64,000 nucleotides of DNA from Octopus vulgaris (GCA_951406725.2 OX597823.1:32860001-32924000); one strand, 5' to 3'; counted from the first letter of the stretch, positions 2,073 through 24,420 are shown. Notes: a model not told the origin generated them from the sequence alone. Program-made: numbers and translations.

Positions 2073-3268
2073 TTGTGATGGAGATATTAATGCCAACATG
2101 AATGGAAGAAACCATAGAACTTGATCAGAAGAGAGGAGTTCTGGTAGGACCCAGGTGAACTTGTGACAGTCCTCTATATCTGAAATAAAATTGGTGTAGT
2201 CACTCATGCTTCTCATACACTTCCAGATGTTTTCAACCAAATCATTTGCTATTTATTCTGTCAATCATCAACAAGTGTCAAACTTTCAAGATGTCACTTT
2301 CAAGATGCATGAGCAGGAAGACACAAATACATAAACACCTATGTGCATAAGTATGGTACATAAACATTCCATGTTCCAACATGCATGCATGATCCTCATA
2401 CATTCACACATATAGATGTAGGAATGTATGTAGACAGATGAGCTGGCCATACATATGAATGTGTTTGCAGAGAACCTTATGTATGTAAAGAGGTGGCAAG
2501 TTTGTGCCTGGATTTCAATATGAGGTTGACTCCATTGTGCTAGTTATCAAGATGGACATCCCAGTTGATATTGCAGAAGGTAGAAAAAGGGGAAGGACAG
2601 CTGGGCAAATCAGCAGGAACAAAACAGGACTTATGTAAAGAGGGGTAGAATGGAGATGGAAGACAATTTATAAGGGTTAATTAATTAGTTTCATAACTAT
2701 CAAAGAAGCAAGTTGCAGATTGGAATATGAACTTAGCTTACATTCTTAATGATAATCAATAACAAAAATGCTAGCATTTGTATAGGAATACTCATTCAGT
2801 TTGTGAGCTACAAAGCAGTCCTATTTGTGCTGATGCCATGAAAAGGCACCCAGTAAACTCGATATGTGTTTGGTACAGTGAGCAGCAACAATGCAGGGCT
2901 TAAGAGACCTCTATAGCCTTTTTCAGGGCGAGATAGCCTCTATACTGTCAGTGCCCAGTACACTGTTATAGTGGCCGGTGTTAGGAAGGACACTCAGTCA
3001 TAGAAACCATTTCATAATGGAGACATTGGAGCAAGACATTTTCCTACAGTCCATCAGATCCTGTCAAATCATCCATGCTATATCAATATGAAAAATGGAC
3101 ATTTGACGATGGTCCAGAGACATAAATACATACAAATAAAAATGGCAAGAAATTGACAGTTGTTAGAACAAAGGAAGACAGATTATGATATGAGCAAAAA
3201 GAAAACCTTTTGATTAAATGTTATCTGTAATTAAACAATTTGCTAAAGGATTTCTAGCACAAACTGAA

Positions 3269-3713
3269 ACTGTTCTGTATTTTTGAGATGAAGAATTCTT
3301 TAATATTATTTACATTTACATTGGACGGATTTGTGTCCTCATCTTGTTTGTTGTTACCACACCGTTTCGGCTGATTTACTCTCCAGCCTTCATCAGGTGT
3401 CCTTGTAGAATTTTGAACCCAACCCTGAGTTCTCATTCCTAAGGTATTTTGCTGATGTTATAATTATTATTATTATTTATTCAAGGTACTGCCTGGAATT
3501 GAACTCGCAAACTTGGGGTTAGTAGCCCACGCTCTTAACCATTATGCTATATTCCCATGTGCAATTATAGAGTGATCCCTTAAGAACAAGAACCCAGGAA
3601 TGGGTTCAAAATTCTACCAGGACACCTGATGAAGGCTGAAGAGTAAATCAGCCGAAACAGTGTGGTAATAACAAACAAGATGAAGACACATATCTGTTCA
3701 ATGTAAATGATGT
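3269..3713 (-). mobile_element. Family A tRNA-headed, hammerhead-containing element with inverted partial copy (copy 1)
   Basis: Minus arm: A box 3549-3539, B box 3506-3495, (AAT)n, hammerhead about 3400-3355, tail to about 3270. Inverted plus arm 3578-3713 with CTGATGA at 3626 and GAAA at 3654. Flanking direct repeat ACAAACTGAA at 3259-3268 and 3714-3723. Confidence 0.85.
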
Positions 3714-3779
3714 ACAAACTGAAGCTATCAGCTTTTGGACATCGAATGTCCTATATTATTTTATCAAGTTGCAGTTACC

Positions 3780-4640
3780 ATTTTCCAAAAGACAAGAATA
3801 ACAGATTGATTGTGATAAGAACACACAATCAAAATGGATCACCTCACAAAAAGGAAAATATCGACAGGCTCTGGAAAAATATTGAACGTTTGGATACTAC
3901 CATTAAATGCAAAGTGAATAATGAAGTGATGAACAAGCAGCTATGATAGACTGTCTAAAGTCTTTGGAAATTACCAATGGAGAATACACACTATTAAACA
4001 AATTACCTTTAAACATCAGCTATGTAGTGTATAAAATGTACACCGGTTACTTGAATATATTTATCCAAGATCAAAGTTAAATAAACAATGAGGTGATTAA
4101 AGAGCAGACAGGGGGAAATACAGGTGTCTAGGACTGTCCCAAACAATTTCTCATCAACAAAGCTGTCCTTAACTGAAGCAACTCTGCCAAAGTTGACTGG
4201 ATGTATGGCCAAACTTTAAAAAAACATTTGGTGCTATTTCTTATTCTTGGATACCAGTCATTATGCCTTGTCAAGGTTTCATTTGCTGTAGTTAATGTCT
4301 TTAAAGAACTGTCAACAACATAACTATTGATCAGAACTGAAGCCACTATCATAATTATAAAGAGAACTATTGACAAAAATATTCCAGGTTGAGAGTTTGT
4401 CTTTATTGCGTTTCATCCTGGTGGAGAATTCCTGTTGAGGAAAAGCAAAGCTACATGTTAGGTTCTGCAGAGAAGAGAATAATTATTACCAACACCTTTT
4501 TGTTTGTAACAAAACTGTACTCAATATTCACAACACCAAGAGACAGAACTAATCCCAACATTCTTACAAGAGATTGTTGACCAGGCAAGGAATATGGATA
4601 TCAAGGGTGTCAAAGTGCAGGCACAGAACAATAGTTGATT
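3780..4640 (+). mobile_element. Degenerate R4/Dong-like non-LTR retrotransposon RT fragment
   Basis: Manual translation gives DCPKQFLINKAVL and NFKKTFGAISYSWI, resembling the R4-clade motifs GCKxQLLINKAI and DYKKAFDSVPHSWI. Contains stops and frameshifts. Confidence 0.6.
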
Positions 4641-4697
4641 TGACTGTTCATACACTATATAAATATATACATATATTTATATCTATGTTTACACACA

Positions 4698-4736
<39 letters not shown>

Positions 4737-4740
4737 TATA

Positions 4741-5885
4741 TCAAAGGAAGGCTAACTGGAAAGACAGATTTGTGTGTGGCAGATGCACAGGAGCAATAAA
4801 CACTGAAAATGTTCCATCACATGCCAGGGGGAAGAACTAGAAGTAGTTGTTAGCTTCCATTACCTAGGTGACCAAGTCAGTAGAGAGATAGATGCTCTGA
4901 GAGTGTAGCTACTAGAATAAGAATAGCCTGGGCAAAGGTCAGAGAGATCCTACTTCTGCTGGCAACAAAGAGCCTCTCACTCAGAGTAAAAGGTAAACTG
5001 TATGGTGCATGTGTGCAAAAAAACCATGCTACATGGCAGTGAAACATGGGCCGTGACTGCTGAGGACATGCGTAAGCTTGCAAGAAATGAAGCTAGTATG
5101 CTCCACTGGATGTGTAATATCAGTGTGCATACACGACAGAGTGTAAGCACGCTAAGAGGAAAGTTGGACATAAGAAGCATCAGATATGGTGTGCAAGAGA
5201 GACGACTGTGCTGGTATGGTCATGTGTTGCGTATGAATGAGGACAGCTGTGTGAAAAAGTGTCACACCCTAACTGTGGAGGGAACTTGTGGAAGAGGTAG
5301 ACCTGGGATGAGATAGTGAAGTATGACCTTCGAATGCTGGGCCTCACCAAGGCAATGACAAGTGACTGAAACCTTTGGAGATATGCTTGTGCTTGAGAAG
5401 ACCCAACAAGCCAAGTGAGATCATAACTGTGGCTTATGCCAGTGTTGCATAACCAGCCCATTTAACAGTAGACTTCAATCATTGAGCAATAAACTATGCT
5501 TGTGAAGACATGTTGAGGCAAGTGAAATCATTGTCTTGGCCAATGCCAGTACTACTTGATTGGCACCTGTGCCAGGGGCACATAAAAAGCACCATATGAA
5601 AGTGGTCGATGTCAGTTTTGCCTGACTGGTCCAATGATGGTGGCATGTAAAAAGCACCAGCCAAACATAGCTGATGCCAGGCCCACCTGACTGGCTCCTG
5701 TGCCAGTGGAATGTAAAAAGCACCCACTACACTCTGAGTGGTTGGTGTTAAGAAGGGCATCCAGCTGAAGAATCCTTGCCAGATCAGATTGGAGCCTGGT
5801 GCAGCCTTCTGGCTTGCCAATCCTCAGTCAAACCATCCAAACCATACCAGCATGGAAAGTGGATGTTAAACAATGATGATGATGA
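4741..5885 (+). mobile_element. 5'-truncated RTE-clade LINE (RT C-terminus plus 3' UTR)
   Basis: ORF 5002-5316 contains MLHGSETWAV...RLCWYGHVLRM...GRGRP, typical of RTE. The 3' UTR has roughly 60-bp repeats and ends in GTTAAAC(AAT/GAT)n. Confidence 0.9.
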
Positions 5886-6704
5886 AGTGTGGCTGTGTAG
5901 TAAGAAGTTTGCTTCCCAGCCATAAAATTTGGGGTTCAGTCCCATTGCAGAACACCTTGGACCAACCATTTCCTTGTGAGTGGATTTGGTTGACAGAAGC
6001 TAAAAGAAGCTCATTAGCACTGTGTGTGTGTGTGTATGTGTGTGTGTGTGTGTGTGTGTGCGTGCGTGCGCGTGCATGTGTGTGTGTGTGTATGGGTGTG
6101 TTTGCTTTACTGTTTCCTTGCTGTGACATCACATGGTTGTTGCAAGCAAGTCTCCCTGTCAAACAATTGATATCCTTCATTCCAATATGCTATAAAACAC
6201 AAGGCAGCAAGCTGGCAGAAACATTAGCATGCTGGGCAAAATGCTTAGCAGTATTTCTTGTCTTTATGTTCTGGTTTCAAATTCCGCCAAGGTCAACTTT
6301 GTCTCTCATCTTTTCAGGGATAGATAAATTTAACACCAGTTGCATACTGGGGTTGATTTAATTGACTGGCCCCCTCCCCCCAAAAAAAATTTCAGGCCTT
6401 GTGCCTAGAGTAGAAAAGAACATGCTATAAAAACACATCTGGTCATGGGGATAAATATTACCTTACTTGGAAACAGGTGAGAGTTGGCAAGAGGAAGAGC
6501 AGGTGACCATAGAAAATCTGTCTCAACAAATTCCATCAGAGACATGCATGGATGGAAAAGTGGACATTAAAACTATGATGACGATGATGAATATATATAT
6601 ATAAAAGAAGTAAGGACCTAAATCCTTCGAAGGAATGTCAAACATCCAAGTCTGCTGCCGGTTCAAACCAAGCAAAGAATATTTATTGAATATATAGTTT
6701 TTTG

Positions 6705-7130
6705 TATAAGGAAAGGAAAAAATATCAACATAGACAATTGTTTAATACAAAGTTGGTACGAATCCAATACAGATTCTATAAGTTGTTTCCAGCCTAATTG
6801 ATTCCAAAACAAAATGAAAAATAATCCTTTTGAAATCACAAATTAGGCTTTTCTTTAAGAATTCATTATTGGAATGAATGGTTTCAACCAAAAAAAATAT
6901 AAAGACCTTATTTCTGGGCTATTGTAAAGGTCTTAATATTTTTGTTGGTTGAACCCATTCATTCCAATAATGAATTTCTGAAGAAACACCTGATTTGTGA
7001 TTTCAAAAGGATTATTTTTCGTTTTGTTTTGGAATCAATTAAGCTGGAAACAACTTATAGAATCTTTATTGGATTCATACCAACTTTGTATTTAAGGATT
7101 GTCTATGCTTAAATGTTTTTCCATTCCTTA
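6705..7130. mobile_element. Inverted-repeat element (about 200-bp arms) with long-stem-II hammerhead motif (family B)
   Basis: 6706-6910 is the reverse complement of about 6926-7130. Plus arm reads ATTT-CTGAAGA(6978-6984)-long hairpin-GAAA(7047-7050)-CAACTTA-TA-GAAT. Confidence 0.7.
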
Positions 7131-7194
7131 TATTTTATTTACACACACACGCACACACACACACATATATATACATACATAAGATGTACCCAGT

Positions 7195-8497
7195 GTAAGC
7201 TAGGGACACACAAAGGTGCAGCAATTTCAAAGGAAGGCTAACTGGGAAGATAGTTTTTGTGCGTGGCAAATGCTCAAGGGCAATAAACACTGAAAATGTG
7301 CAGAGAACAGCTTCCGTCACATTCCAGGGAGAAAAACTAGAAGTAGTTGATAGCTTCCATTACCTAGGTGACCAAGTCAGTAACAGGAGTAGATGCTCTG
7401 AGAGTGTAACGGCTAAAATAAGAATAGCTTGGGCAAAGTTCAGAGAGATCCTACCTCTGTTGGTGACAAAGAGCCTCTCGCTCAGAGTAAAAGGAAGACT
7501 GTATGACGCATGTGTGCGAACAGCCATGCTACATGGCAGTGAAACATGGGCCGTGACTGCTGAGGACATGCGTAAGCCTGCAAGAAAGGAAGCTAGTATG
7601 CTCCACTGGATGTGTAATGTTAGTGTGCATACATGTCAATGTAAGTGCCCTGAGAGGAAAGTTGGACATAAGAAGCATCAGATGTGGTGTACAAGAGAGA
7701 CGAATGTGCTAGTATGATCATGTGTTGTGAATGGATGAGGACAGCTGTGTGAAAAACTGTCACACCCTAACAGTGGAGGGAACCTGGGGAAGAGGAAGAC
7801 CTGGGATGAGGTAGTGAAGCATGATCTTTAAATGTTGTGCCTCACAGAGACTAAGACATTTGGAGATATGCTGTGCTTGAGAAGATCAAGTGAGACTGTA
7901 GCTGTGGCCTATGCCATATAACTGGCCCATTTAAGAGTACCCATCAATCATTGGACAATAAACTATGCTTGCCAAGACCTGTTGAGGCAAGTGAAATCAT
8001 TGTCATGGCCAATGACAGTACCACCTGATTGGCACCTGTGTCAATGGAACGTTTAAAGCACCATTTTAGCATGATTGTTTCCAGGGCCACTGACTGGCTC
8101 CCGTGCTGGTGGCATGTAAAAAGCACCATTCAAGCATGATCATTGCCAGCATTGCCTGACTGGCTCCTGTGCCAATGGCATGTAAAAAACACCATTCGAG
8201 CATTGTCGTTGCCAGTGCCGCTGGACTGGCTCCTGTGCAGGTGGAATGTAAAAAGCACCATTTGAGCGCGACCGATATCAATACCACCTGACTGGCCCTT
8301 GTGCCAGTGGCACATAAAAGCACCCACTACACTCTCGGAGTGGTTGCTATTAGGAAGGGCATCCAGCTGTAGAGACTTTGCTAGATTAGTTTGGGGCCTG
8401 GTGCAGCCTTCTGGCTCACCAGCCCTCAGTAAAACCATCCAAACCATGCCAGCATGGAAAGCGGACGTTAAACGACGGCGATGATGATAATGATGAT
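7195..8497 (+). mobile_element. 5'-truncated RTE-clade LINE, same family as 4741-5885
   Basis: ORF 7259-7717 contains LEVVDSFHYLG...RIAWAKFRE...KGRLYDACVRTAMLHGSETW. Tandem 3' UTR repeats. Ends in GCGGACGTTAAACGA(C/T)G...GATGAT. Confidence 0.92.
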
Positions 8498-8605
8498 ATA
8501 CATGAAGGCACATGGCCAAAATGGTTAGGGCATTGCACTCACAATTGCAAGATTGTGACTTTGACTCCCAGACCAATGATATGCAGAGTTCTTGAACAAA
8601 GTTGT

Positions 8606-9000
8606 AGGAGTGGCTGTGTGGTAAGTAGCTTGCTTACCAACCACATGGTTCCGGGTTCAGTCCCACTGCATGGCATCTTGGGCAAGTGTCTTCTACTCTA
8701 GCCTCAGGCCAACTAAAGCCTTGTGGGTGGATTTGGTAGATGGAAACTGAAAGAAGCCCATCGTATATATGGATTATGTATGTGTGTGTGTGTGTATATG
8801 TTTGTATCTGTCCCCACAACATTGCTTGACAACCGATGCTGGTGTATTTACATCCCAGTAACTTAGCGGTTCGGCAAAAGAGACTGATAGCATAAGTACT
8901 AGGCTTACAAAGAATAAGTCCTGGGGTTGATTTGCTGGACTAAAGGCACTGCTCCAGCATGGCCAGTCACATGACTGAAACAAGTAAAAGAATAAAAGAA
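8606..9000 (+). mobile_element. Full-length tRNA-derived SINE (GGAGTGGCTGTGTGGTAAG family)
   Basis: A box TGGCTGTGTGG, B box GGTTCAGTCC, internal (TA/TG)n and an A-rich tail. Further copies at about 50955-51356 (-), 54960-55125 (-), 57890-58255 (-), 49085-49230 (+) and 63527-63690 (+). Confidence 0.85.
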
Positions 9001-9143
9001 TATGCACACTGATATATGACCTACGTTGGACTCCTTATTCACATAATCACCGAACCTGGAGCTTAACTATGGTCTATCCATAGCACTTACTCAGCATTAT
9101 CTGACACCTTTGGGTCTTACTGATACCATTACCTCTCATAACA

Positions 9144-9179
<36 letters not shown>

Positions 9180-10119
9180 TGCATATATATTTTATATCGA
9201 CCAGTCTACATCAGTTCTGCTATTTTTGTTTCATTGTGCTTGCACTGCTAGTTGGATCTTGTTAGTGATTAGATCTTCACCAATGTTAAAAATCTTCCAC
9301 TCCCATGGGAAAGAAAGGAATGAATGTATAGAGATGGCACAGAGCAATGAAGAGGACTCTTGTTGGGGACAAGACAACTTCTATAGTGCTGGTGCCAATA
9401 TAAAATGCACCAAACAGTCTGTAAAGTGGCTTTGATGGTAGGAGGGACATCCAAGTAATGAAAGCATGGAAAATTTGAGTGAGAAATATTACCTGTCAAG
9501 AAGGGCAATAACTCCTAATAAGAACTGTGGTCGTGATGACTTGTTCAGTTCATATCAACAAGAGATTGATAGGAATGGCTGTGTGGTTAAGAAGTTCTCT
9601 TTGCAACACATGGTTTCTGGTTCAATCTGACAATGTACCTTGGGCAGGTGTTTTCTAATATAGTTCCAAGTAGAACTGGGTTATGAAAACTGTATAGAAG
9701 CCATTTTGTGTATCTATGAAATATGTGTGCATGTCATCATTTTTCTCTTCTTCACATAAGAAATCAGTGCAAAAACAGTGATATTGTGCTTAGATTTCCA
9801 GTGAATATTAGGTTTGGTAACTTTGCCCTCTCAAAGTAATGAAATAAAAATTCTCTTATTTGTAAGGAAAGGGTTGACAACAGGAAGAGCATCCAGCTAT
9901 AAAATACTGCTTGAAATGAACACCTGTTCAACATCACCAATGCATAGGAAGAAACAGACATTAAAATGAACAAATGGATAAACATACAATGAATATACCT
10001 ATGTACAGCGAGTTGACCGAGTCATTCGAATATTGGCTATACTGTCTTGTGGTCTGAGATTCAAACCCAGTTGAAGTCAACTTCATCCTTTCCAGATTAA
10101 TAATTGAAATATCAATACA

Positions 10120-11130
10120 AGACAGATTGGAGGAAATGGTCCCATGGAAATTCTGCAAAGTGAAGGTGTCCAGGACCGTTGCCACAGCCACTATCTTCTC
10201 AATGTATTCAAAACAACTGTCCTTGAGGTTCTTCAACTTAGGAGAAAGTCACAGGAGCAAGGTCTGGACTGTACGGTGGGTGATGGACAGTTTTGATTCC
10301 CACCTCTGTCAAGTAGTTGGTTACTAGGATGGAATTGTGGACTGGTGCATTGTCCTGGTACAGGCATGACCAACCCAAGTGAAAGAGCTCGGGCCTTTTG
10401 TAATGAAATTTCTTCCTAAACTTTCTCAAAACCTTTACAAAGTACACTTTGTTGACCATCTGGCCAGAGGGAACTTGGCAGATATAGATGATATCCTTTC
10501 TGTTGAAAAGGGCACCATCATGAGCCCTCTGTGGACCTGCTTTACCTGGCCTTCTTGGGTCTGGGTGAACCAAGATACTTCCAGTGGGCACCCTGTCTCT
10601 TGGTCGCTAGCTCATAACAGTAAATGGTGCTTTCATCACAGGTCACCAGAGACTCAAGTACTCATGAATTTGAGATAAGCTCAACCAGCTCTCTGCTGTC
10701 ACCAATACTTCTTTCCTTCTGTTCATCACCGAGCACCTTTTGAACAAACTTTGCACATATTCAGACCTTCATGAATAATTGTGCGTCCAGTTGGAACACC
10801 AGCACCAAACTGTATTGTCTTTATAGACACACAGCAGTCTTCATGCAGAAAATTGCATATTTTCTCAACCAGCTCTGATGTCTCCCACCTCTCTTTTCTA
10901 CCGTTCTTGAACCGCTTCTGCCAGTGAAAAACTTATGCTCAACTCACACAAGTTAATCCATAAGCAATCTGAAGTATTTTGTAAGTTTCTGCCCAATTTA
11001 ACACAAAACTATACAGCAACGCAAGCTTCCATTCATGTCCTGACAGCATTCTGCAAACCTGTCAGCTGTGACAAGCAGCATTTAGAAAGATGGGTTCAAA
11101 GTACAGCCATCTCATTCAATCTGGAATAGT
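10120..11130 (-). mobile_element. Degenerate mariner-type transposase remnant
   Basis: ORF 10238-10591 contains YQDNAPVH...HPPYSPDLAP, the mariner catalytic motifs. Frameshifted; TIRs not resolved. Confidence 0.8.
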
Positions 11131-11313
11131 AAAAGTTGGCAGGTCAGCTTATTAGATGTATACTAGTGATATACTAAAATTACAATAATCTAAGACAGTT
11201 ATATCTGCCTCTCCTAAAAAAGAACTCAAACCTTCTGGAATGCACTGTGTGTGTGTGTTATAAAAGTGAATAGTTGAAAGAAAGTAACATTAGAAATTAC
11301 ATGCATTTAATAG

Positions 11314-11452
11314 CATTTTGACTCAGCTTCACATTACTTAAAGTTTCAAGAGCGCATGGGATAAGTCCACCTCATATATTCAGAACATCTGATAAGGTGG
11401 ACATGTTCTATATGCCCTCGGACTTTAAATAATGTGGAGTTAAGTCAAAATG
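11314..11452. repeat. About 140-bp imperfect palindrome (hairpin, MITE-like)
   Basis: cattttgactcagcttcacattacttaaagt...gtccacct pairs with aggtggac...actttaaataatgtggagttaagtcaaaatg. Confidence 0.7.
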
Positions 11453-14400
11453 TTTTATACATATATATATAGTGTGTGTGTGACTGGATGAATGAAACCA
11501 ACTCTATTAAACTTAATTTTCCATCTCAAAGACTTGATATATTTAACAATGTTAGCAATTCAGATTTATTTTGAATCATACAAAAACAATTTCTTTGGGA
11601 AATGTTAAAACAGTGAAATATATATATAAAAAGGGGAAAGAAGATGAGGAGGGGTTAGAGTCAATGTAAGAAAAAAAACTGTTATCCACAGTGAAGTACA
11701 AAAGAAAACACTAGTTTAAACAGTATAACAAAATTAGAGTTGAGATTTTATCATACAACGAGTTTGTGGTTTTTAATAATTTTCTTGGATTTCAAAAATT
11801 AAAAAGAATATTTAAAATGGTGTGTAGATACACACTAGGAGATAAATTTGTCAAAATACTAAATCACAGTTTTATTCCTTTCTTCAAAGACTCAGGTATG
11901 AATTTGTCTTTTCAAAGACCTTATTTATAAAACTTCTATTATAAAGCTTCTTTTTTTTTTTATTTTTTATTACCAAATATCCTACTACAAGCAGAGAAAT
12001 GGCTCCTTTTTTTCTTTCAACCACATGGCATATAAAACAGTAGAGCAAGGTCAGCTCTCTCTTGTAAAGATCTTGATATTGTGAGCTCTAGCATTCAATA
12101 TCTTCATGATTTAAGTAAATTTAATATTTTACCTTCAACTTTCTTTTACTCAGCAGAAAACTTAAGGTAAAAATATTTTTAAAAAATGAATATTCAGAAA
12201 AATTTAATTATTATTTTGTTTTTGTTTATTTTTTTTTTTTTTGTTAAAAAGTCATAAAACATTTCATGGTATGAGTGTCAAAGTCGGTTTGTAATGTAAA
12301 GTACTGTTTATATATATGTGTGTGAAATATCCACCCAATAAATGTTATTCATTAATTAACCAATTAAATTAATAAAGGAGTTAGATCTTCGTAATCGGCT
12401 GTAACTGTGTGTTCAAGCTACTGAGTAGAAGCTAATAAAAATCAGCAAATTTGGAAAATTCAGAAATAAAACCATATTCTAGATTGTTAAAAAAGTTATG
12501 GGATTATAAATTTCTCAACTGTGAATCATTGACAAAACAGAACCTGTCGATAATTTATTGAGTGCTCATTTAGCTGAGTCAGAGAAGAAAACCATGAAAT
12601 AAAAGATCTGTCAATGATGAAAACATTGTAGGAACAGCAGATTATTATATTTGTAACTTAATGGGAAAAGATGTGGCATTGCAGAAGACAAGAAAACTAA
12701 AATACACATCTAATTGAATTAATTAGATATTACTTATATAATTAAATTGATTAGATAATACAGATAATTTCCTGAAATAGTCATTTTCATTTCTCTCCTC
12801 ATGAAAAACCACAACTTCATGTTTCTAAACTGAGCAGTACATTCAAACACAAAGAATGAAGGATTAAATGGTCGTTAAAACAATGATAATACAAATTGGA
12901 ATCCTACAATTAAATATTATCTTCACTTAAATTTCAGCTTTGTCTCTGCAAATAGGGATTGACACAACAACATTGTTGGGTAGAAGCTTAAAGTGAACAA
13001 CAGATGATGGGTGGCAGTTGTATCATGAACAGAATTAGAACACAGATAAAAGTGCAACTAAGAATATACATTGTTGTTTTGCTATTAATCTTAAGTAATA
13101 ATATTCACTAATATTACTAATAAATCAATATGAATCTTAACTTTAATACTCATTCAATCATTATCAACATGGATCATTAAAGAATTGAACCTAACAATCA
13201 TTAATCTCAAAATCACTTTGTTACAGTCTAATATCTATCTATATATATATGATATCATACGATATGTTAGCTGGAATAGGGAAACTATCCAAATTTGAAA
13301 TTAGTTAAATGTTCTCAGACCCCATAAATGTGAAAATATTTGTTTATAATCATAGTAAAATGATGTATTTTACGGTTTCAAGACACACCAATCAATCATC
13401 AGTCTTTCACTTTCATCATATTTCAGCTTCTATTCTTTATATCACACATACATAACATGCAGGAATGAAAACAAAACCATTTTGTTTTTGAATATTATTT
13501 GCTAACAACTAACAAACACTTCTCTCTTGCTGTCTGAAAAGAGTTTATGAACAGATTATTCCATATATATTTTAATCCCACCTCCACCATATCTATATTG
13601 TCTGTGGCATCAGTTAATCCATCTGCTATGATAGTTTACTGTTCTAAGGAAATTGTATTAAAACAAATGCACCAAGTGGATAATATGGAAGTTCCTTTTA
13701 CTGTACCTAATTTATCAAATGAAATATCACAAACAGAATGTAACAATTAAAATGACATTAGGTAATTATTAAAACTATGTAGGTCATTCTTAAATTTCAT
13801 TAAACTGTCTACAATCATAGTTGCTAAATTAATTAGATTCTAAGATGTTCCCATTAAAATAATGTAAAAACATGTTAGGACGATTGTTTCTGTTTTCTGC
13901 CTCAAACTGGTTCTTATGAAGTTTACTGTTTTATTTTGAAAATTTAAATAGATAGTTCATTCATAACTTCTTTCATGGGGTTATTCCTTGTTGTAAACAT
14001 TCAATTGCACCATAAGCTATCTTGCTGTATTGGACATTCATTTCTCTCAGCTCATTTTTGCTTAGATTATGCAAATTACATGTTCTATTCTTTTTTTTGT
14101 ATAAATACCCTTGGCTACTGGAGATACAGTCTGACAATTGTCATATTGATGACAGCTACTGAGACAGAAACATGCATCCATCTTCAGACAAGAAGCATCT
14201 TTTTCTTTAATGGCCTGTCAACCTTGGAAGAATCTTGAGTTTTGAAATTATCTCCCCCTTCCCATTTGGTGCTAGTCATAATTGGCATTTGATAATTATA
14301 ATGCATACTCAAGAGGCAGACATAATTTTAATAAATCAAGAATTTATCTTATTTGAAATGCTTGTATTTATCTATGTTATATATATATATATCTAATATA

Positions 14401-14456
14401 GGATAAAATTTTCAAAAAAATTTATCAGTGGCCAGCATATTAAAAATATCTTTTAA

Positions 14457-14676
14457 CCCTTTCGCTACCAACCCGGCTGAAACCGGCTCTGGCTTTGAGT
14501 ACAAATGTCTTGTTTTCATAAGTTTTGAATTAAAATCTTCCACCAAACCTTAGTCACAATTTATGTTCCTAACACTAGCTGAATGATAACTAAGTTATTT
14601 TACTAAATTCTTTGTTGTATTTAAAGTAATTGAAAGAAACAGAGAGCATCTCAAAATAAATACAGTAACAAAAGGG
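14457..14676 (+). mobile_element. piggyBac-type TTAA MITE (220 bp)
   Basis: TTAA TSDs at 14453-14456 and 14677-14680. TIRs CCCTTTCGCTAC / GTAACAAAAGGG. Confidence 0.85.
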
Positions 14677-14689
14677 TTAAGGTGAAAAT

Positions 14690-15002
14690 TATAAACAATT
14701 TATAAATAAGGGCAAAAGAAAAAAATTCCAATGCCAAATATGCTGAGAAATAGACTTTAAATCGTCAATAACCACATATAATTCATCACTAAAAGAATTC
14801 TTTATCAAATAAACTCAGAAATCAGACCGATTCAGTAATGACGTAATTTTCTAGAAATTTCTGTCAGCTTGCTTCAAGACACATGCTTTTAGTGATGAAT
14901 TATATGTGGTTGTTGACTTAGTGATGAATTATATGTGGTTGTTGTCTATTTCTTGGCATATTTGGCATAGGAATTGTTTTCTTTTGCCCTTATTTATAAG
15001 TT

Positions 15003-15005
<3 letters not shown>
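14690..15005. repeat. Inverted-repeat element (about 105-bp arms) with an internal 28-29-bp tandem duplication
   Basis: 14690-14795 pairs with 14887-15005. ttagtgatgaattatatgtggttgttg is duplicated at 14889 and 14918. Confidence 0.7.
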
Positions 15006-15069
<64 letters not shown>

Positions 15070-16408
15070 GTAGGTAGATGGAGTTTATCTTGTAGAGATA
15101 AAATTAACTCAAAATTTCAAAAATAGTAATGGAAAAATTAATTTAAGTCCCTATTTTGAGAGAGAGTGGGGCATGTTGGTGTATATTATATTGAGTTAAA
15201 GACTTGGTTCATATCCCAGCAATGGACCCGTTGTTCTTTTCTGTCTCAAACTGGTTCTTATATTGATCTAATATACTTCTTCACTGTTGCAATCTTTACT
15301 GTTACCATGGACTCATCAAGGTAATCAAGGCTTGACTGATTTCAGTTTGAGCATCAATAAATATCCAAGTTCAGCCAGAAATAATTTACAAATTCTTAGC
15401 AATGGAAACAAATATTTCCTTTTTATACAAAACATACGTAAATTATTGAGACGGTGCATGTAGTGATTTCATTTTGCTTGAAAGAATTATAGAATCCATT
15501 GAGGCATATTCATCCTTTGTTCTATATACTTACTCATATATAGCATGTTTCTACTTCCTCAATCGCTACAGCAGTACATTGTGTCCAAATGCCTCTTGAA
15601 CATTGTTGTGAGACCATGATATTAATGAAACAACAGTTATTAAACATACACATATGTTTTTCTAAGGAAATTGTTCCCTGGAAATGTGATTCTTACATAT
15701 TGAATAATAATAATACTGATGTGATACAAGAATTATTGAAACGAGTGTAGGAATGAACATAGGGACATCACTGATGTTGTAATCTGTCGTTCTTTCTAGT
15801 ACATATGTGTGTGTGTGTTGCTGATTATGTCTTTGTTAGTACAATTAGGAAAACATTATCCATAACTGAATTTTTCAGAACATGTAATTAGGACACAAGT
15901 GAAAAGATGTGTGTGTGTGTGTGTGTGTATGCAGATATATATTCACACATACATTCAGACACACAAATGGAAATATATATGTATGTTTTTGAAAAACAAA
16001 GATAAAAATGTTCATTTGTAGTAGAAATAATAATAAAGCCCAAAGTTTTAAAAAGAATGTGTGGATTATCAGATATTATACAATGATGTCATATCACAGA
16101 CATCAAAAGAGAAACATTTTTCTCTTTATATTATAAAAAAAGTTTTCCCTGTCTTTTTAATAGAGGGGAGGGGGTTGTTTTTAATTTTACTTTATAGTTT
16201 ATACACAGGTTCTAACAAGTAAAATACTGTGAAATGTTAGTATTTTTCAAAACTTTGAGTCTTTTCTCTGTTTTCATTGAGTAGGCAATTAATTCCTTGG
16301 GATGAAATGATGTCAACACGGATTTGACAAAGCATTAAGATAAAACGAAGTAGGAGTGGAGGAGGGGGGCAGAAATCTTGATTAAAAAGTGGGGTGTTTT
16401 TGCCAGCC

Positions 16409-16617
16409 TTATCGTTTCTTCTTCCTGTCTTTCTTTTCTTTGATTTTCTCCGTCTCTGATTGGTATTTCTTGTAGAGAGTGTAACCAACATACACTACTA
16501 GTGCGGGAATGGTAAAAAACTGCAGCAGTTGAAAGAAACGTTTCTCAACTTCTGGGGTCTTTGGTTTAGATTTGATCACTTTTACTAACAAAGTTTCAAA
16601 GCTCAGAGTGGCATCCG
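16409..16617 (-). CDS. FKBP11: FKBP11-like exon 6 (DATLSFETLLVKV...TM FFTIPALVVYVGYTLY...KEKKDRKKKR*)
   Basis: Acceptor cttccaattccag|. Encodes the last FKBP strand, a transmembrane segment and a Lys-rich tail ending in a KKxx ER-retrieval motif. TAA at 16411-16409. Spliced CDS is 636 nt (211 aa plus stop) with no internal stop. Confidence 0.93.
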
Positions 16618-16856
16618 CTGGAATTGGAAGATAAAAATAAATTCTTGGTTAATCAAGTCAAATAAAATTTAGTGACTGGGGAAAAAAAAAAAGTTTCAAA
16701 ACCAGATTTAAAATGTAAATGCAGTCAATACATAAATCTGTAGAAATAAAAGTTCCAGCATTCCTTATGTGGTTATTATCAGATTCTTAAAAGGCTTCCT
16801 CTCCATAACTCCTACTATTGGAATAAAGCCCCCACTTACCCCAATACTCCCATATA

Positions 16857-17127
16857 CAGTGGCGGACTAAGTCTAAAAATATTGGTTGCCAGGAGACCAA
16901 GGGGTCCCACCTGCAACTAAAATGTTGTTTAGTTTTTTTTTGCTTTTGTTAAAATTATTCTTTTCAACTGTCTACAAATACAGCCAGGCTGAATTAATTA
17001 ATGCATTCTTCCAGGAGTGAATGAAAAATTCTCAAACTTGAGGGAATGGGCCCCCATATATGGATTCTAATGGTGCAGGGGCCCACTTGCCATTGAGTAA
17101 GCTGGCAACTTGGCCAGTTCACTACTG
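16857..17127. mobile_element. hAT-type MITE (271 bp) in intron 5
   Basis: 8-bp TSD CCCATATA at 16849-16856 and 17128-17135. TIRs CAGTGGCGGACT / AGTTCACTACTG match at 9 of 12 positions. Confidence 0.8.
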
Positions 17128-19013
17128 CCCATATACATATATCTTTTACATGTTTCAGTCATTGAACTGCGACCATGCTGGAGTAGTGCTTTAAATGGTT
17201 TAGTTGAACAAATCAACCACAGCGCTTACCTTAAGAATACTTGTTCTCTGAAGTGCTAAGTTAAAGGGATGTAAACAAACCAACACTACTTATTGAGTTT
17301 ACCACACACACAATTTCATTCTATTAAATCCACTCAAAAAGCATTGGTCAGCCTGGAACTATAGTAGAAAACATTTGCCCATGGTGCTATGCAGTAGGAC
17401 TGAACTTGAAATCAGGTAGTTGCATAGTCACCTTCTAAACCACATGGCCATATCTGCCCCTAGAGTGGACATTCAATGTGGCACAAAACCTGCTAGAAAG
17501 AGCAGTCAAATTTCCTTCATACTTTACATTTACTCAACATGTTTTCCAGTTAGTAGTCTTGCATACAGTCTGAAAATATGATAGCTTGGTCATGGCTGGA
17601 GTGTCATTGCTTTTCTTGATCAAAACTAACCTAGGGCTAAACAGTAGCAGCAACTATTCTGTCTAAAAATCACAAACATAAATAGTGAAGAAAACCTGTT
17701 TGCCATGCTGGCATGGGTTGGATGGATTGACAGGAGCTGGCAAGGCCAGGGACCACACCAGGTTCCAGAGTCTGTTTTGTGTACTCAAAACACAGGAACC
17801 TCTACAAGTATGCTTGATTTACTAGAAATAGCAGCTAAATCTCCCCATATTATACCTTATCACCTTACAAAAAAGAGGCAATGTAGTCTCTGTTATATAA
17901 AAAGATAAGATGGTCATGGCTACAGTTCTTTTGTGGATGGATAGAAGGTGTGAGGAAAAAGGAACATGAAAGAGGCAGATGAGCATGGATCAGGGTCAGG
18001 ATAGAGTCATTGGAGGAAAGAGGTGTGTGGAGGTTATGGGACGGGGACAAAGATGGAGGGGTGAGTGGGTACTGAGATGGTGAAGGAGCTGTGGGGAACG
18101 AACATGGAGAGAAAACTAGTGGGGGATACCATAGATGTAAGGAAAGAGTAGAATATAGATGTAGGGAAGGTACCCCAGTTAGGGAGGCTGTGGGGAGAGG
18201 GCAATAAAAGAAAAAATGGGAGGGAGCAATGAGGGAAAGAAAGACTGGAAGACATCTATAGAGATGATGGAGGAGTAGAGGGTGAGAGGAGTGGGATAAA
18301 AAGAGGATGGAATGTGAAGGGTACCATGGGGGTGGGGTGAGAGTAGAGGATGACAGTAAGGAGGCTGAGAAGAGAGAACAATGAAGGAAAGGCAGTGGAT
18401 GAATTCCAACAAGAGTATCCCAAACCATCAACCTCCCATCATTAGCATACTGTCAACTATACTTGCCAAAAAGAGCAGGGTTTTTCTCCAGAACAATATG
18501 TTATCAGTTGTCATGGAACCACTTGTCTTTCTTGTGAGATTCAGCATCTTGAGAATAGTCTTCCATCTCTTTATCCCATGGCTTCCAAACATGCCATCTA
18601 CTTTGATCACTCAGCCATACACATCACATGCCCCTATTAACACAGTCTTCTGTCTTCCTTTTATCTCTTAGGTCATTCACACACACTAACATTACACAAT
18701 TAAGTCACCAAAGTAACAAAAACTATTGACTACTTGTAGGGATCCTTCTGAGCAATTGAAAGAATCCAGTTTCAGGACACATTCCTTGCTTAATCCTCCT
18801 GCACATATGAAGGCTGCCTTTGTTGTTAGCCCATCTCTGACACCAATACATCTCTTGCACATCCATCGTTTATATTGAGCACACTGTACAGAATTTCTAC
18901 TTACTCTCTCTCTACATACTGAGCACAGCCATTTCTATGTTGGCACTACAGTCGTCTTTTTTTTTCTACTTACCATAACTTCAGTCTCAGTTAAATTTAA
19001 ATTAAAGATTTTT

Positions 19014-19529
19014 CAATTACATGAAAAAATGCGAGCATGAAAAGTAATATTCTTAAGACTATAAACCTGGAAAAGTACAGGACAAGTTATTACACCTGTA
19101 AAAGTATAGGACAAACTATTACTTCAGGTAAAGTAAAGAATAAGAAACTTTTTACTCAAAATATTGCAGCAAAGAATGCCAGTTCTTCCAATTTATCACT
19201 CTTTACAGTTCTCATCTTTTAAATTTATTGTACAAAACTGTTCAACTAATTTGTAAGTTTGTCTATTTAGTCACTTTTTTCTGTATCTAAGGTAGTAAAT
19301 TAGCCAAATTCTACTTAAATAGTATAGTGTTATTTGTAAACAATAATAAAATATTTAATATTCAAATTTTAATTTTAGCTGCAATATTTTAAGTAAAAAG
19401 TTTCTTATTCTTTACTTGAAGTAATAGTTTGTCCTATACTTTTACAAGTGTAATAACTTGTCCTGTACTTTTCCAGGTTTATAATCTTAAGAATATTACT
19501 TTTCATGCTTATGTTTTTCCATGTAATCC
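19014..19529. mobile_element. MULE/foldback-type MITE with about 155-bp TIRs
   Basis: 19016-19170 is the reverse complement of 19378-19528. Near-9-bp TSD aagattttt (19005-19013) / atgattttt (19530-19538). Confidence 0.75.
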
Positions 19530-21720
19530 ATGATTTTTCTAGGCATTGCTGTTATAAGATAATTAATGATGTGTCAATTAACAATTTAGAATTTTACCTT
19601 ATAAAATACTGGGTAAGGGGATACATTGGTTGCTATTTTTAGCATGTCGAGCAACCAGGTAGAAGCTCTTTCATTGGTTTGATTGCATTATGAGATTTTT
19701 TTACACATATATGTATAATATGCAAATATATCATTGGCAGAATTTAGAGAGTAAGTCAAAAACTGAGAGTTTCATGCATTGGCACTTATCAAACACAAAT
19801 TTGTCCATAGTCATTCTGTAACTTGTGATGAAATAACTTCTAAAATACAAAATTTGTCAAAAACATTAAGAGTAAGCCCTGTTGTATGTGACACATTCTA
19901 CCAGTGTTTAGTTTTTAAAAAATTAATCTGTACGTCAAATTGAATAGATCCAAAATGGATAAAAAGCAAAGTCGACCTTGGCGGAATTTGAACTCAAAAC
20001 ATAAACACAGGAGAAACACCGTTAAGCATTTCGCCCAGCACACTAAAGTTTCTGCCAGCTTGCCGCCTTAGAATGTAAACATTTATTTTAGCAATATATT
20101 CTTTATTCTTATAGCTAAAGCATTACTTCCTTACTCTCTTACACGAAATTTCGTGGTATTTCACCCCATAACTTTTCTTCTACTAATTTTTGTTCAATGC
20201 GACTAACAACTCTGAATTCCTCATACATTTTTCTATTATCTAAGCCTAAGAAAAATATACTGTTATTTTAAAATTAAAAAGTTTATGTTCATTGAAGGTG
20301 AATAGGTGCCTTACTGTACCCCTTGAGGTCACAGATATTTTGAAATAACTTTTTTTCTACTGAACCAAATCTCAAACTATTTATGCTAAAGTATAGCTAA
20401 GGAGGTGTCCTCTTTAAAACTGTTAACAGTTTGCAATTTTGTTGAGAACTGAATTAGTGGTGAAGCTTGGAAACTGCTGCGATTGACGAAATGGTAGACT
20501 TAAGAATATATTCAACTACTACTGTGGTTGAATGATTCCATGTTGTTTCAATGTTTGGAATTTCTTCTCCAAATCTCCCACAGATTCTGCTATAAGAAAG
20601 TAATTTACAGGAATTTCCATAGACAACCAGTTTTCAACTCCTCTGTTATGGCTTGGACGACTAAGCTTAATGGACCCTTACCTGCCCACTAAATTTATTG
20701 CTATACATTGTTACCACTGTTTTAATGTCCACTTTTTCATGTTAGCACAGGTTGGACAGAGTTTACTGAGGCAGATATTCTATAACTGGATGCCCTTTCT
20801 GTCATCAACCCATTCCCAGACAAGATAATATTTTTCCATAGCCAGACATGTTTTCACAGAAAATTGGAAATGAATGATATTTATTTACAACAGTTATACA
20901 ATGTCAAGACTAGGAAATACATACATACACCTGACCTGGCCACCACAGCAGAACTGAGATCCTAAAACCAAGGTGCCACATAAAAAATATTGGTGTGGGT
21001 GCTTGTTCCACATAAAAAGCACCCAGTACACTCTGGAGGGGTTGGCATTAGGAAGGGCATCCAGCCATAGAAACCATACCAACACAGAAAATGGAGCTTG
21101 GTGCAGACCCTGCTCTTGCCAGTTCTTGTCAAGCCATCCAACATACGAGAGCATAGAAAATGGCCATTAAATGTTGTTGATAATATATATATGATGGGTT
21201 TCTTTCAGTTTCCATCTACTAAATCCAACCATAAAGCTTTGGTCAGCCGAGATGCCATGCCACAGGACTGAACCCAAAAACTATTGGTTGGGGAGCAAAC
21301 TTCATAGCCATTAGTCATGCCTGTGCCTCAGGTTACATTGTATCAGGCTAATCCAGGATATGAACCATATATTTATGCATGTATACACACACACATAAGT
21401 AACTGTCTTTGTGTCATATAACATACATCAAGTTGTCTCTTACCTCCCGTATAGCAGCTTAGCTTCTGAGCCCCTACAAAGGTCTTCACTATTTTTCACA
21501 ATCCTCCCTCCTACCACTCCTCAGCCAAAATAACTAAGTAGTAGCAACTACATAAAGCCACTACATCTGTTGTTCATTTTGATGCCATATTCACATTATT
21601 CCTACCAACAAAACCTTTCCCAAATTTTTATTCTCCACCAAAGTATAAAATCACTCCAATCCAACAAAGGGATTAGTTTAGACCCAATGATATCTGATTA
21701 CATTCAAACAGTGAACTCCA

Positions 21721-21851
21721 ATTATTTACATTTGACAGATATTTGTCCTCATCTTGTTTGTTGTTAACACGTTTCAGCTCATATACCCTCCAGCCTTCAT
21801 CAGGTGTCTTGGAGAAATTTCGAACCTGGGTTCTCATTCCTAAGGTATTTT

Positions 21852-21890
<39 letters not shown>

Positions 21891-22141
21891 TCACTGCCTG
21901 GAATTGAACTAACCCCAAGATTCCAAGTTCAATTCCAGGCAGTGACCTGAATAATAACAATAATAACAACAACATCGAAAATTACCTTAGGGATGAGAAC
22001 CCAGGTTCGAAATTTCCCCATGACACCCGATGAAGGCTGGAGGGTATATCAACCGAAACATTGTGTTAACAACAAACAAGATGAGGACAAATATCCGTTA
22101 AATGTAAATAATGTACATAATTCCTCATCTCTTAACTATAG
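21721..22141 (+). mobile_element. Family A element copy 2 (inverted arms, a hammerhead motif in each)
   Basis: Arms 21721-21910 and 21911-22141. Minus-arm core CTGATGA at 21803-21797; plus-arm core CCGATGA at 22027-22033 with GAAA at 22055. 14-bp direct repeat AACAGTGAACTCCA at 21707-21720 and 22142-22155. Confidence 0.88.
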
Positions 22142-22348
22142 AACAGTGAACTCCAAGGCTAGCTCCTACCTTTGCCAATCCCCTAAATCTTTTTTTTTCT
22201 CTAAAGGATTCTTTCCTACTCCATGGAAACACACCAAGGTGGAGATACATTATACAGCAGACTTGATAAACATATGCTAACAAGAAAAAAAGAGGAAAAT
22301 TGTTGGTGAAACCAAGAATATATTTTATATATGTAAGCTGAAACTCAC

Positions 22349-22419
22349 GTGGTATAACTGGAGGTCGGCCAGACTTGCCATAAGCTAAATGTGGTGGTAT
22401 TACTAATTTTCTTTTTTCT
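22349..22419 (-). CDS. FKBP11: FKBP11-like exon 5 (EKRKLVIPPHLAYGKSGRPPVIP-P), 71 nt
   Basis: Acceptor ttatttacag|, donor CCAC|gtgagt. Motif EKRKLxIPPxLAYG. Confidence 0.95.
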
Positions 22420-22489
22420 CTGTAAATAATAAAAATCTTTAATTTTATTTGTCTGAAAATATATTTAATTTCAGTTTATGTGTAATTAA

Positions 22490-22713
22490 CCCTTTTGCTA
22501 CCATCTATCTGTTGGAATACCTTGCCTTTTGTTTTAATCAATTTTGAAAATTATGAAGAATATAATTATATAATTTTATCATTATTAAGTTGGTGTTTAG
22601 AACATGAATTTAGCATGAAATGTTAGTGGAAGATTTTTAATTTAGTTTACATTAAAACAGAAATTTGTACAATAGAACTAAAAATGGTCTTAGAAAGGTT
22701 GGAACCAAAAGGG
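22490..22713 (-). mobile_element. piggyBac-type TTAA MITE, same family as 14457
   Basis: TTAA at 22486-22489 and 22714-22717; CCCTTTTG / CAAAAGGG termini. Degenerate copies at about 480-667, 32570-32775, 44540-44760 and 48045-48890 (the last split by an RTE fragment). Confidence 0.8.
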
Positions 22714-22974
22714 TTAAACTAAAATCAATTACAAAGTGATAGTCAATATTGCAATTTAACACACATATGTCTTTCTTCAAATGATAAAGCTCCAGGGGAA
22801 AAACAAATTCTGCCCCAAACAACAAAAATGAACTGACCAGTTCCTCAGGATCATGGTCAGTTTTTCAAAAACACAATACAATGTTTTTTATAACAGACTT
22901 TTTAAGAAACTTGCAAGCAATCTGATGAGTATCTTGCCAATACTAAAACAAAAATAATAATGATTAGTCTTTCT

Positions 22975-23594
22975 AATTTTGATACAAAGTCAGAAGTTTT
23001 GAAATGGGAATGGGGTAAATCAATTAAATCAACCCTAGTACTTTATTTTATTGACTCAAAGGGTGAAAAAGAACGCTGACCCTGATAGGATTTGAACCCA
23101 GAACCAGAAGAAATGCTGCTAAGCATTTTTTTTTTTTCTTAGTGATGCACTAACAATTCAGCCAGCTTGCCACCTTAATAATAATAATTCCTTCAACTCA
23201 AGGCACAAGGCTTGAACTTTTAATAGGAGAGGCTAGTTGATTACATCAACCCCAGTACATAACTGGTACTTATTTTATTGACCCTGAAAGGATGAAAGGC
23301 AAAGTCAACCTCAGCAGAATTTGAACTCAGAACATAAAGATGTACAAAATGCTGCTATGCTTTTGTTTTTTATGCTCTAATAATTCTGCCAGCTTGCCAT
23401 CTCACTAATAATAATAATCCTTTCTACTAGAAGGTCAAAGTCTGAAATTTGTGGGGAGGGAATAGTCGATTACATTGACCCCAGAAAGATGAAAGGTAAA
23501 GTCGACCTCAGCAGAATTTGAACTCAGAACATAAAGACGGATGAAATGCCAGAGCATTTTGCCCACATGATAACAATTCTGCAGGCTCACCATC

Positions 23595-23600
<6 letters not shown>
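22975..23600 (-). mobile_element. Tandem cluster of 3 SINE copies separated by (AAT)n
   Basis: Repeated gccagcttgcc heads and gaatttgaactcagaac B boxes at about 23090, 23320 and 23515. Confidence 0.75.
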
Positions 23601-23641
<41 letters not shown>

Positions 23642-24034
23642 TCTTTCTAATTTAGACACTCCTTGACTTTCCAGGCTCTGGACAAATGTCCTGCTCTTCT
23701 AGAGCCTGTATGAGACACATACAAAGGATATAAGCTGTCTGATCATCATCTTTTAACATCCCTGTTCCATGGTGGTATGAGTTTGATAGGATCCAACAGA
23801 TCTGAGGACTACATCATGCTCCAGTGTCTGTTTAGGTTTTGATAGCTGGATGCCTTTCCTAATGCCCACCACTTCACAGAGTGTACTGGGTGTTTTTTCA
23901 TAACACCACCATTTAGTGAGTAAGGAAGCAGCTTCATACAAGGAGATGAGAGGTTAAAGTATGAGAGAAGGGAGTCAAAACAGATTTCTTGTTGTAGAGG
24001 AGGGACTAGAAGAGAAGGTTGGATAACCAGCATG

Positions 24035-24420
24035 AACATTATTTACATTTGATGGATATTTGTCCTCATCTTGTTTGTTGTTAACACAACATTTCGGCTG
24101 ATATACCCTCCAGCTTTCATCAGGTGTCTTGGGGAAATTTCAAACCTTGGTTCTCATTCCTAAGGTATTTTTCAATATTATTATTATTCAAATCACTGCT
24201 GGAATCGAACTTGGAACCTTGGGGTTAGTAGCCCACACTCTTAACCACTACGTTATATATCCGTGGACATATGGTGTAGTGGTTTGAAATTTCCCCAAGA
24301 CACCTGAAGGCTGGAGGGTATATCAGTGGAAACGTTGTGTTAACAACAAACAAAATGAGGACAAATATCCATCAAATGTAAATAATGTAAATAATTTTTC
24401 ATCTCTTAAATATAGAACTG
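24035..24420. mobile_element. Family A element copy 3 (full tRNA head on the minus arm, internally deleted plus arm with tail)
   Basis: Minus arm: A box 24255-24245, B box 24210-24201, CTGATGA at 24123-24117. Plus arm starts GGACATATGGTGTAGTGGTT (24265) then jumps to the hammerhead region. TSD-like AACCAGCATG (24025-24034) / AACCAGAATG (24421-24430). Confidence 0.85.

Follow-up and report, generated by a model that had tools for sequence, protein, structure and literature searches.

A Penelope-like retrotransposon of Octopus vulgaris with a tRNA-Arg-derived segment, a candidate RNA polymerase III promoter, in its pseudo-LTR

Three repeats in a 64,000-nt stretch of the Octopus vulgaris genome (GCA_951406725.2 OX597823.1:32860001-32924000; the window hereafter) are, in the reading that we consider rather probable, 5'-truncated head-to-head insertions of the pseudo-long terminal repeat (pLTR) of an autonomous Penelope-like element (PLE) of the Penelope/Poseidon type, the tRNA-Arg-derived head of which likely acts as an RNA polymerase III (Pol III) promoter for the whole coding RNA. 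The element itself is plainly a PLE. An initial annotation, made from the window alone, had described the repeats as a separate non-autonomous short interspersed element (SINE) with a borrowed PLE end; the same sequence, head included, proved to be the pLTR of the autonomous element. The unusual part is the tRNA-Arg-derived segment with its A and B boxes at the start of the pLTR, and the remaining anatomy is that of known Penelope elements. 

A motif located just 5' of the tRNA-like head has 220 matches in the genome, and in most of the 30 loci fetched, the shared sequence extends upstream over varied lengths of up to ~760 nt. This extension translates to the C-terminus of a GIY-YIG endonuclease, with a stop codon at -306 (in pLTR coordinates, 0 is the end of the tail and negative numbers run upstream from there). 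Two rounds of sequence walking from the GIY-YIG end led to the reverse transcriptase (RT) motifs, with YVDD among them, and the N-terminus. The repeating unit is 2,655 nt long and contains one open reading frame (ORF), encoding the RT followed by GIY-YIG. The consensus ORF is 835 aa and opens at an ATG upstream of a hammerhead ribozyme. The order of parts in the pLTR is the stop codon (-306), the tRNA-derived head (-274 to -201), an (AAT)n spacer, the ATG, the hammerhead (-127 to -82) and a 34-nt tail. The hammerhead and tail form the first codons, and the tail reads straight into the ORF. This tail-ORF junction has 58 exact matches in the genome, and direct pLTR-tail-ORF junctions, representing partial tandems, were found at four loci (L176, L183, L188 and L190). 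Because copies run upstream into GIY-YIG and downstream, via the tail, into the ORF, the unit of the initial annotation is the pLTR of an autonomous PLE. Nor does the unit begin de novo at the tRNA head, as had been proposed, since long copies carry the ORF stop codon ~25 nt upstream.

One genomic copy retains 461 open codons and matches RVT_1 (E 5.6e-10). PF26215 is present in 83 of 84 long homologues, some of which also contain PF01541. GIY-YIG was called by its motif and by comparison with full-length homologues; a Pfam search with three endonuclease-bearing fragments of the family gave no match. The closest homologue is 53% identical and begins with the same hammerhead-encoded N-terminal peptide, and over the RT half, identity to an Anolis protein is 40%. 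The linker between RT and endonuclease in the consensus protein contains no Zn-finger-like motif, a feature that sets Neptune and Nematis apart from Penelope and Poseidon (PMC8557442). The linker points to an endonuclease-containing PLE of the Penelope/Poseidon type. Mobilization of the repeats by a PLE RT/GIY-YIG protein, as initially suggested, is supported, the autonomous partner having been found and reconstructed.

A 38-nt hammerhead motif has 1,620 exact matches in the genome, and a 28-nt motif downstream of the hammerhead has 8,184, with 0 matches for either reversed control. The 28-mer is matched exactly by 59 of 203 independently sampled arms, corresponding to ~28,000 arms in the genome, and 40 random 10-kb stretches contained 4 insertions. 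A sample of 142 insertions was assembled from 67 loci found through the downstream motif (the least biased set), 64 further loci found through the hammerhead motif, the random stretches and the window, after exclusion of six loci common to two sets and three overlapping loci. Inverted head-to-head pairs with a tail on exactly one arm account for 76 of the 142. Target-site duplications (TSDs) of at least 8 bp flank 52 of these 76 pairs, compared with 5/76 shifted controls, with a mode of 12-13 bp. The 3' ends of the arms are bimodal, at -28/-34 and ~0, and many match ORF bases +1 to +8 beyond the tail mark.

Inverted arms, a tail on one arm and a TSD are the described structure of PLEs (PMC8557442, PMC3846280), and the insertion anatomy of the octopus family is textbook Penelope. 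The Penelope-type arms, tail and TSDs noted in the initial annotation are thus borne out in the genome-wide sample. Its statement that every copy is an inverted pair holds for the three window copies, but not for the least biased set, which comprises 36 inverted pairs, 29 single arms and 1 tandem among 67 loci; in some of the single-arm cases, the partner is split off by an expanded (AAT)n or lies beyond the fetched flank. The (AAT)n spacer has often grown to hundreds of bases or hosts insertions, parting the head from the hammerhead (L103, L117, L238, L290). Arms ending in an expanded (AAT)n without a visible head were treated as censored (15/106 and 22/119).

The head is colinear from end to end with a tRNA-Arg(TCG) of the same genome (48/71 positions identical, a level reached by 0 of 2,000 shuffles) in both subfamilies of the element, the comparison set consisting of Arg, Ala, Thr, Cys, Lys and Glu tRNAs. 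A covariance model built from 12 tRNAs of the same genome matched four heads with E 0.009-0.15, and a fifth with E 4.3. The alignment and the model matches bear out the tRNA-like head with A and B boxes of the initial annotation. The box starts are 43 nt apart, and both boxes are kept in both subfamilies. Subfamily B, which is identical to the main one at 278/306 positions of the pLTR, retains tRNA-Arg bases lost from the main consensus, is ORF-linked, and has a frame open through the hammerhead. Copy 1 of the window falls in this subfamily, where the initial annotation had assembled a single unit from all three copies. Rfam reported no tRNA and no hammerhead in the window (E up to 1) or in one good family copy, and ARAGORN reported no tRNA in the window; the tRNA and hammerhead identities therefore rest on our own tests.

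No free-standing SINE with the family head was found among the 45 best non-family matches in 1.56 Mb of fetched DNA, and the heads of other SINEs of the genome resemble it weakly, with E 0.01 or worse. The window also contains copies of further abundant SINE families with tRNA heads, at 41614-41676, 51180-51396, 54947-55163 and 58079-58295. A metagenome scan with an alignment query returned 79 PLE loci, which are more distant, and a scan with the closest homologue (P0001) alone returned none. None of the 28 readable ORF-to-hammerhead stretches from metagenome PLE loci reached a tRNA-like score at the level of the family (z 7.1), the next highest being 3.8. A tandem metagenome PLE that was not among the 28 scored (L332:2740-3100) contains A/B-box-like motifs and AAT just before its hammerhead. 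These motifs were matched as tRNA by neither our tRNA model nor Rfam, and a second tRNA-headed PLE is not established. Each 2.8-kb unit of this locus has only 2 TTTT, and the 5' part of its ORF includes a histone-type stem-loop (Rfam Histone3, E 0.15). A search of the literature, excluding repeat databases and supplements, revealed no tRNA-headed pLTR and no PLE-mobilized tRNA SINE; Repbase, Dfam, SINEBase or the deposited octopus repeat library of PMC13282606 could contain the consensus.

The 5' ends of the copies suggest a start site for the RNA. Of the 91 uncensored arms in the least biased set, 40 have their start between -300 and -261, and 4 have it further upstream. Once the random set is included, 56 arms reach -254, and 52 of these end by -300; the same measure for four intervals of 40-50 nt further downstream gave 9/115, 13/106, 13/93 and 9/65. 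Reading of 92 junctions between -305 and -262 placed the limit at -281/-280, with 3 of them continuing past -281 into the genomic upstream sequence. The seeming starts at -288 and -291 proved to be short fold-backs made of head sequence. At tail-to-ORF loci, four direct-orientation jumps (two of which share one junction) land on G-280, preceded by A residues that are absent from the element at that place. In the element, a T precedes G-280, and the A box follows 13 nt later. Such an arrangement fits the start of a type-2 Pol III promoter.

The 2.9-kb sense strand of the element is also depleted in T-runs. TTTT occurs 0 times in the 2,505-nt ORF and in the whole unit, compared with a mean of 3.2 in synonymous-codon shuffles of the ORF (probability of none, 0.019). 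Decayed copies of the family contain 0.30 TTTT per kb over 107 kb, approximately eight times fewer than other PLE ORFs (63 stretches of at least 1.2 kb, median 2.5 per kb). Subfamily B contains none in 1,156 nt, and a second PLE family serving as a T-run control contains 5 in 2,211 nt. The T-run result modestly favours Pol III, and is supportive rather than decisive.

The consensus hammerhead has a 5-bp stem I, a 6-bp stem II, an intact core and an ACGU palindrome, in agreement with the minimal type-I hammerhead of the initial annotation. Cleavage is predicted after GAAACGUU, at -86. In the window, CUGAUGA...GAAA is intact in 4 of the 6 arms and broken in the + arms of copies 2 and 3, and 0/6 arms match the consensus hammerhead in full. 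The covariation envisaged for stems I and II did not appear, as there are no compensatory changes within the family and the variation consists of CpG decay and subfamily sites. Related metagenome loci have the same layout, with the ORF followed by a hammerhead. Arm starts near the cut are few (6/91 at -92 to -84). A pile-up of copy ends at the ribozyme cut was considered and rejected, the start rate in -99 to -50 being the lowest of all intervals. Because nearly all copies span the cut site, hammerhead cleavage appears unneeded for making the short copies. For Poseidon_Ac (PAc) of Anolis, Frangieh et al. showed that the start of the ORF and the hammerhead overlap, and that in vitro the element can do without cleavage (PMC11167929).

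We hypothesize that a Pol III transcript would begin at G-280 of the upstream pLTR and continue through the hammerhead, tail and ORF. By analogy with PAc, the element protein would nick both target strands ~12 bp apart and, on each of them, begin reverse transcription inside the RNA at one or other end of the tail. When begun in the 5' pLTR, reverse transcription would reach the 5' end of the RNA and run off after at most 280 nt, and the run-off products would be the short tRNA-headed arms, with a tail on one only, joined head to head. Longer copies would derive from starts in the downstream pLTR. In vitro, reverse transcription by PAc starts internally at two sites bounding the tail, and the RNA must reach into the ORF past the tail (PMC11167929); PLE promoters lie in the pLTR (PMC2377424). 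Because short copies lack the ORF RNA past the tail that PAc needs, they look like dead ends of the coding RNA. We infer Pol III transcription of the coding RNA from genomic sequence. The chances appear to us evenly balanced that this is an autonomous coding retrotransposon transcribed by Pol III, which would have captured a tRNA-Arg promoter and purged terminators from its 2.5-kb ORF, with the uncapped RNA being translated and its first codons folding as a hammerhead. The route by which an uncapped Pol III RNA is translated is not explained by the model.

Several observations weigh against Pol III transcription of the coding RNA. Markov shuffles gave less extreme probabilities for the absence of TTTT (0.08 for first-order and 0.16 for second-order), GGGG is as absent from the unit as TTTT, and 3 of the 63 control stretches, from 2 families, also contain no TTTT; the one readable family among these has a T-rich 3' untranslated region (UTR) and no tRNA head. 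Three raw RNA-seq runs from a related organism showed approximately equal strands over the pLTR and no pile-up of starts or ends, with a depth below 20 at the ORF start and reads derived mostly from copies inside host transcripts, which are uninformative on the promoter. A 5-bp hairpin at -281 to -270 gives fold-backs in 10 junctions, and part of the -280 boundary may be structural, as Adineta PLEs, too, have palindromes at the 5' ends of their pLTRs (PMC3846280). About 4% of arms (4/91), together with several tailed ORF-linked arms, need RNA extending beyond -300. Since 1/30 tail-to-ORF segments extends to -276, the placement of the ORF-RNA start at -280 rests mainly on the short arms.

An alternative is an ordinary Penelope, with a passive tRNA remnant from a tRNA-Arg or SINE head that inserted into its 3' UTR, an internal Pol II promoter in the pLTR, and a -280 boundary that is either a Pol II start or a hairpin fold-back. 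Drosophila Penelope has a TATA-less internal pLTR promoter (PMC2377424), and a TCACT initiator-like motif is reported in an Adineta pLTR (PMC3846280). The octopus pLTR has an initiator-like TCACTCC at ~-293 to -287, ~10 nt upstream of G-280, fold-backs are seen at the small hairpin, and a capped RNA would account for translation. However, the copies end at -281/-280 and not at the initiator-like motif, with the 3 of 92 junctions already mentioned extending further, and the direct-orientation jumps reach G-280, where fold-back cannot apply. The A-box spacing fits a type-2 Pol III promoter, T-runs are rarer than in other PLE ORFs by the factor of approximately eight given above, and both subfamilies retain the A and B boxes. 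We regard the Pol II explanation as possible but unlikely.

The short arms far outnumber the ORF-bearing ones (4/91 pass -300), as would be expected if pLTR-only copies were a self-propagating SINE, transcribed by Pol III, copied in trans by the PLE protein and descended from short masters. This explanation, too, draws on a finding unfavourable to our own: a haplotype is enriched in short arms (47/59, 52/58 and 54/57, versus 17/47, 27/47 and 28/41 in ORF-linked arms), a comparison that may be biased by the selection of ORF-linked arms by similarity to two copies. Adineta pLTRs can mobilize foreign DNA in trans (PMC3846280). Both non-autonomous Chlamys elements and animal retrozymes have been described (PMC8557442; bioRxiv 10.64898/2026.07.22.740005). 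Furthermore, L448 and L449 share an internally deleted junction in different flanks, indicating that a non-coding derivative was copied at least once. Short copies, however, carry no private diagnostic changes at a frequency of at least 12%, junction fold-backs aside, and every common haplotype is also found in ORF-linked arms. Many 3' ends match ORF bases +1 to +8, and the PAc template requires the ORF past the tail, which short copies lack (PMC11167929). We consider descent from short masters improbable. Far more improbable still is a retrozyme or SM-alpha-like cycle, in which the hammerhead would cut tandem units to monomers or circles that are then reinserted. The minimal type-I hammerhead, the ACGU palindrome, which can pair two molecules (cofold), and the 6/91 arms that begin close to the cut at -86 could be read in this way, but the copies are dispersed inverted pairs and not arrays (1 tandem/67), and they end at -280 and at the tail rather than at the cut, where starts (-99 to -50) are rarest.

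The shared junction of L448 and L449 (G000:C3, near 3.76 and 4.76 Mb) joins ORF +231 to G-280, and a break at +231 is seen in L458 too. The idea of a prolific deleted master was rejected, since its junction occurs only twice in the genome. At L146:2078-2232, RNA reads from the related organism share linked differences in the ORF end, at a depth above the genomic copy share; possible sources are a single expressed host transcript in which a copy is embedded and a different subfamily.

With the repeats read as insertions of the pLTR of an autonomous PLE, the window copies can be laid out in full. The three two-armed inverted copies of the initial annotation were recovered at or near the positions it gave, each consisting of two head-to-head arms with a tail on one of them:

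3259-3268: left TSD of copy 1, 10 bp, exact repeat at 3714-3723
3269-3575 (-): long arm of copy 1, with tail, pLTR -293 to -2, subfamily B
3365-3396 (-): hammerhead core and stem II, long arm of copy 1
3483-3562 (-): tRNA-Arg-derived head of copy 1, with A box, anticodon-like arm and B box
3575-3716 (+): short arm of copy 1, without tail, pLTR -167 to -32
3626-3657 (+): hammerhead core and stem II, short arm of copy 1, palindrome mutated
3714-3723: right TSD of copy 1
21707-21721: left TSD of copy 2, 15-bp exact match that takes in a few bases of the element end
21721-21910 (-): inverted arm of copy 2, without tail, pLTR -223 to -37
21908-22147 (+): forward arm of copy 2, with tail, pLTR -241 to -2
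22022-22067 (+): decayed hammerhead of copy 2, CUGAUGA core mutated
22142-22156: right TSD of copy 2
24025-24034: left TSD of copy 3, 6 bp exact, 9/10 with one mismatch
24032-24277 (-): inverted arm of copy 3, without tail
24092-24123 (-): hammerhead core and stem II of copy 3
24190-24268 (-): tRNA-derived head of copy 3, with A and B boxes
24281-24420 (+): forward arm of copy 3, with tail and a deleted hammerhead core, pLTR -145 to -3
24421-24430: right TSD of copy 3

The flanking direct repeats that had been reported are exact for copies 1 and 2 and weaker for copy 3. Base 3562 of copy 1 is a G that matches the putative start site G-280. In copy 3, the true start of the inverted arm is at ~-280 (24268), with a short fold-back ahead of it. 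Copy 2 begins within the anticodon arm and has no A box; from 21993, its forward arm encodes a peptide with 91% identity to the beginning of the PLE ORF (~50 codons).

To our knowledge, the division between polymerases is taken as fixed, with coding retroelements transcribed by Pol II (R2 through rDNA) and only non-coding SINEs by Pol III. This division would be broken by a PLE whose promoter is tRNA-derived and whose ORF is free of terminators, if confirmed, and the short copies of such an element would illustrate one way in which a SINE-like family arises from the promoter end of its autonomous parent. In the thousands of short arms, the 5' end of the RNA and both RT start sites could be read off as they occur in vivo, in a pattern that matches the anole in vitro tail model, and the arms would show copies made from uncut RNA. 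Tens of thousands of arms would be taken for SINEs by automated annotation. If the Pol III interpretation fails, an ordinary, well-resolved PLE family remains.

The octopus tRNA-derived SINEs OK, OR1 and OR2, reportedly described by Ohshima and Okada in 1994, resemble the pLTR copies in having an A/B-box head with a simple repeat behind it, and short dispersed copies in the tens of thousands. Unlike tRNA SINEs, the pLTR lacks both an A-tail and a 3' end derived from a LINE, is inserted in inverted pairs, and belongs to a coding element. A single ORF of ~835 aa with RT and C-terminal GIY-YIG is shared with Poseidon_Ac (PMC11167929), D. virilis Penelope (PMC2377424) and Adineta Pen2a (PMC3846280). 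Also shared with Penelope/Poseidon PLEs are the first codons in the pLTR, the hammerhead at the ORF start, a 30-40-nt tail on one arm, the inverted truncated arm, the TSD, and a promoter expected in the pLTR. Unlike in PAc, Penelope and Pen2a, the octopus pLTR is largely tRNA-Arg-derived, the sense strand contains no T4, and the copies are overwhelmingly pLTR-only. No tRNA-derived pLTR is described in the available text of PMC11167929, PMC2377424 and PMC3846280, and the term tRNA occurs 0 times in that of the last.

Among elements with ribozymes, Schistosoma SM-alpha/Sj-alpha (PMC6765202) similarly contain a Pol III-type promoter followed by a type-I hammerhead; these are non-coding tandem repeats cut to monomers, whereas the octopus unit belongs to a coding element as its pLTR, with ends that lie off the cut. 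Animal non-LTR retrozymes (PMC7229834; bioRxiv 10.64898/2026.07.22.740005) likewise have a type-I hammerhead and are short non-coding repeats tied to PLE pLTRs, but form tandem arrays and circular RNAs, in contrast to the dispersed inverted pairs in octopus. The terms tRNA and promoter are absent from the available text of the bioRxiv report. Cassandra, Helenus and Ajax (PMC10886601) also carry small-RNA-derived sequence inside a retroelement terminal repeat, but are non-autonomous LTR elements, whereas the octopus element is an autonomous PLE. R2 (PMC6765202) is a coding retroelement whose RNA is not a Pol II product, carries a ribozyme at the 5' end and is presumably translated independently of a cap, as may be the case for the octopus PLE; unlike the latter, it is a non-LTR element co-transcribed with rDNA and has a ribozyme resembling that of hepatitis delta virus.

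Other features of the window include a 1.75-kb copy of the second PLE family, unrelated to the first, at 51608-53356 (-). It contains RT, GIY-YIG, a long 3' UTR with a microsatellite, and a hammerhead-like motif; no tRNA head was noted, and the family has 408 candidate copies in the genome. At 35615-36085 (-) is a GIY-YIG fragment that looks Neptune-like by eye and has a Cys-rich linker; a hammerhead-like motif follows at 35385-35413 (-). The fragment had no Pfam match. Long inverted repeats resembling miniature inverted-repeat transposable elements are located at 6717-7119 and 58938-59110 (193-nt arms at 90% identity, and a ~170-nt hairpin), and dispersed arrays with tandem units of ~66 nt at 5560-5734, 8029-8269 and 53921-54795. 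Open frames at 7199-7717 (-), 10238-10606 (-) and 34713-35102 (-) resemble, by eye, an RTE-type RT C-terminus and fragments of Tc1/mariner transposase.

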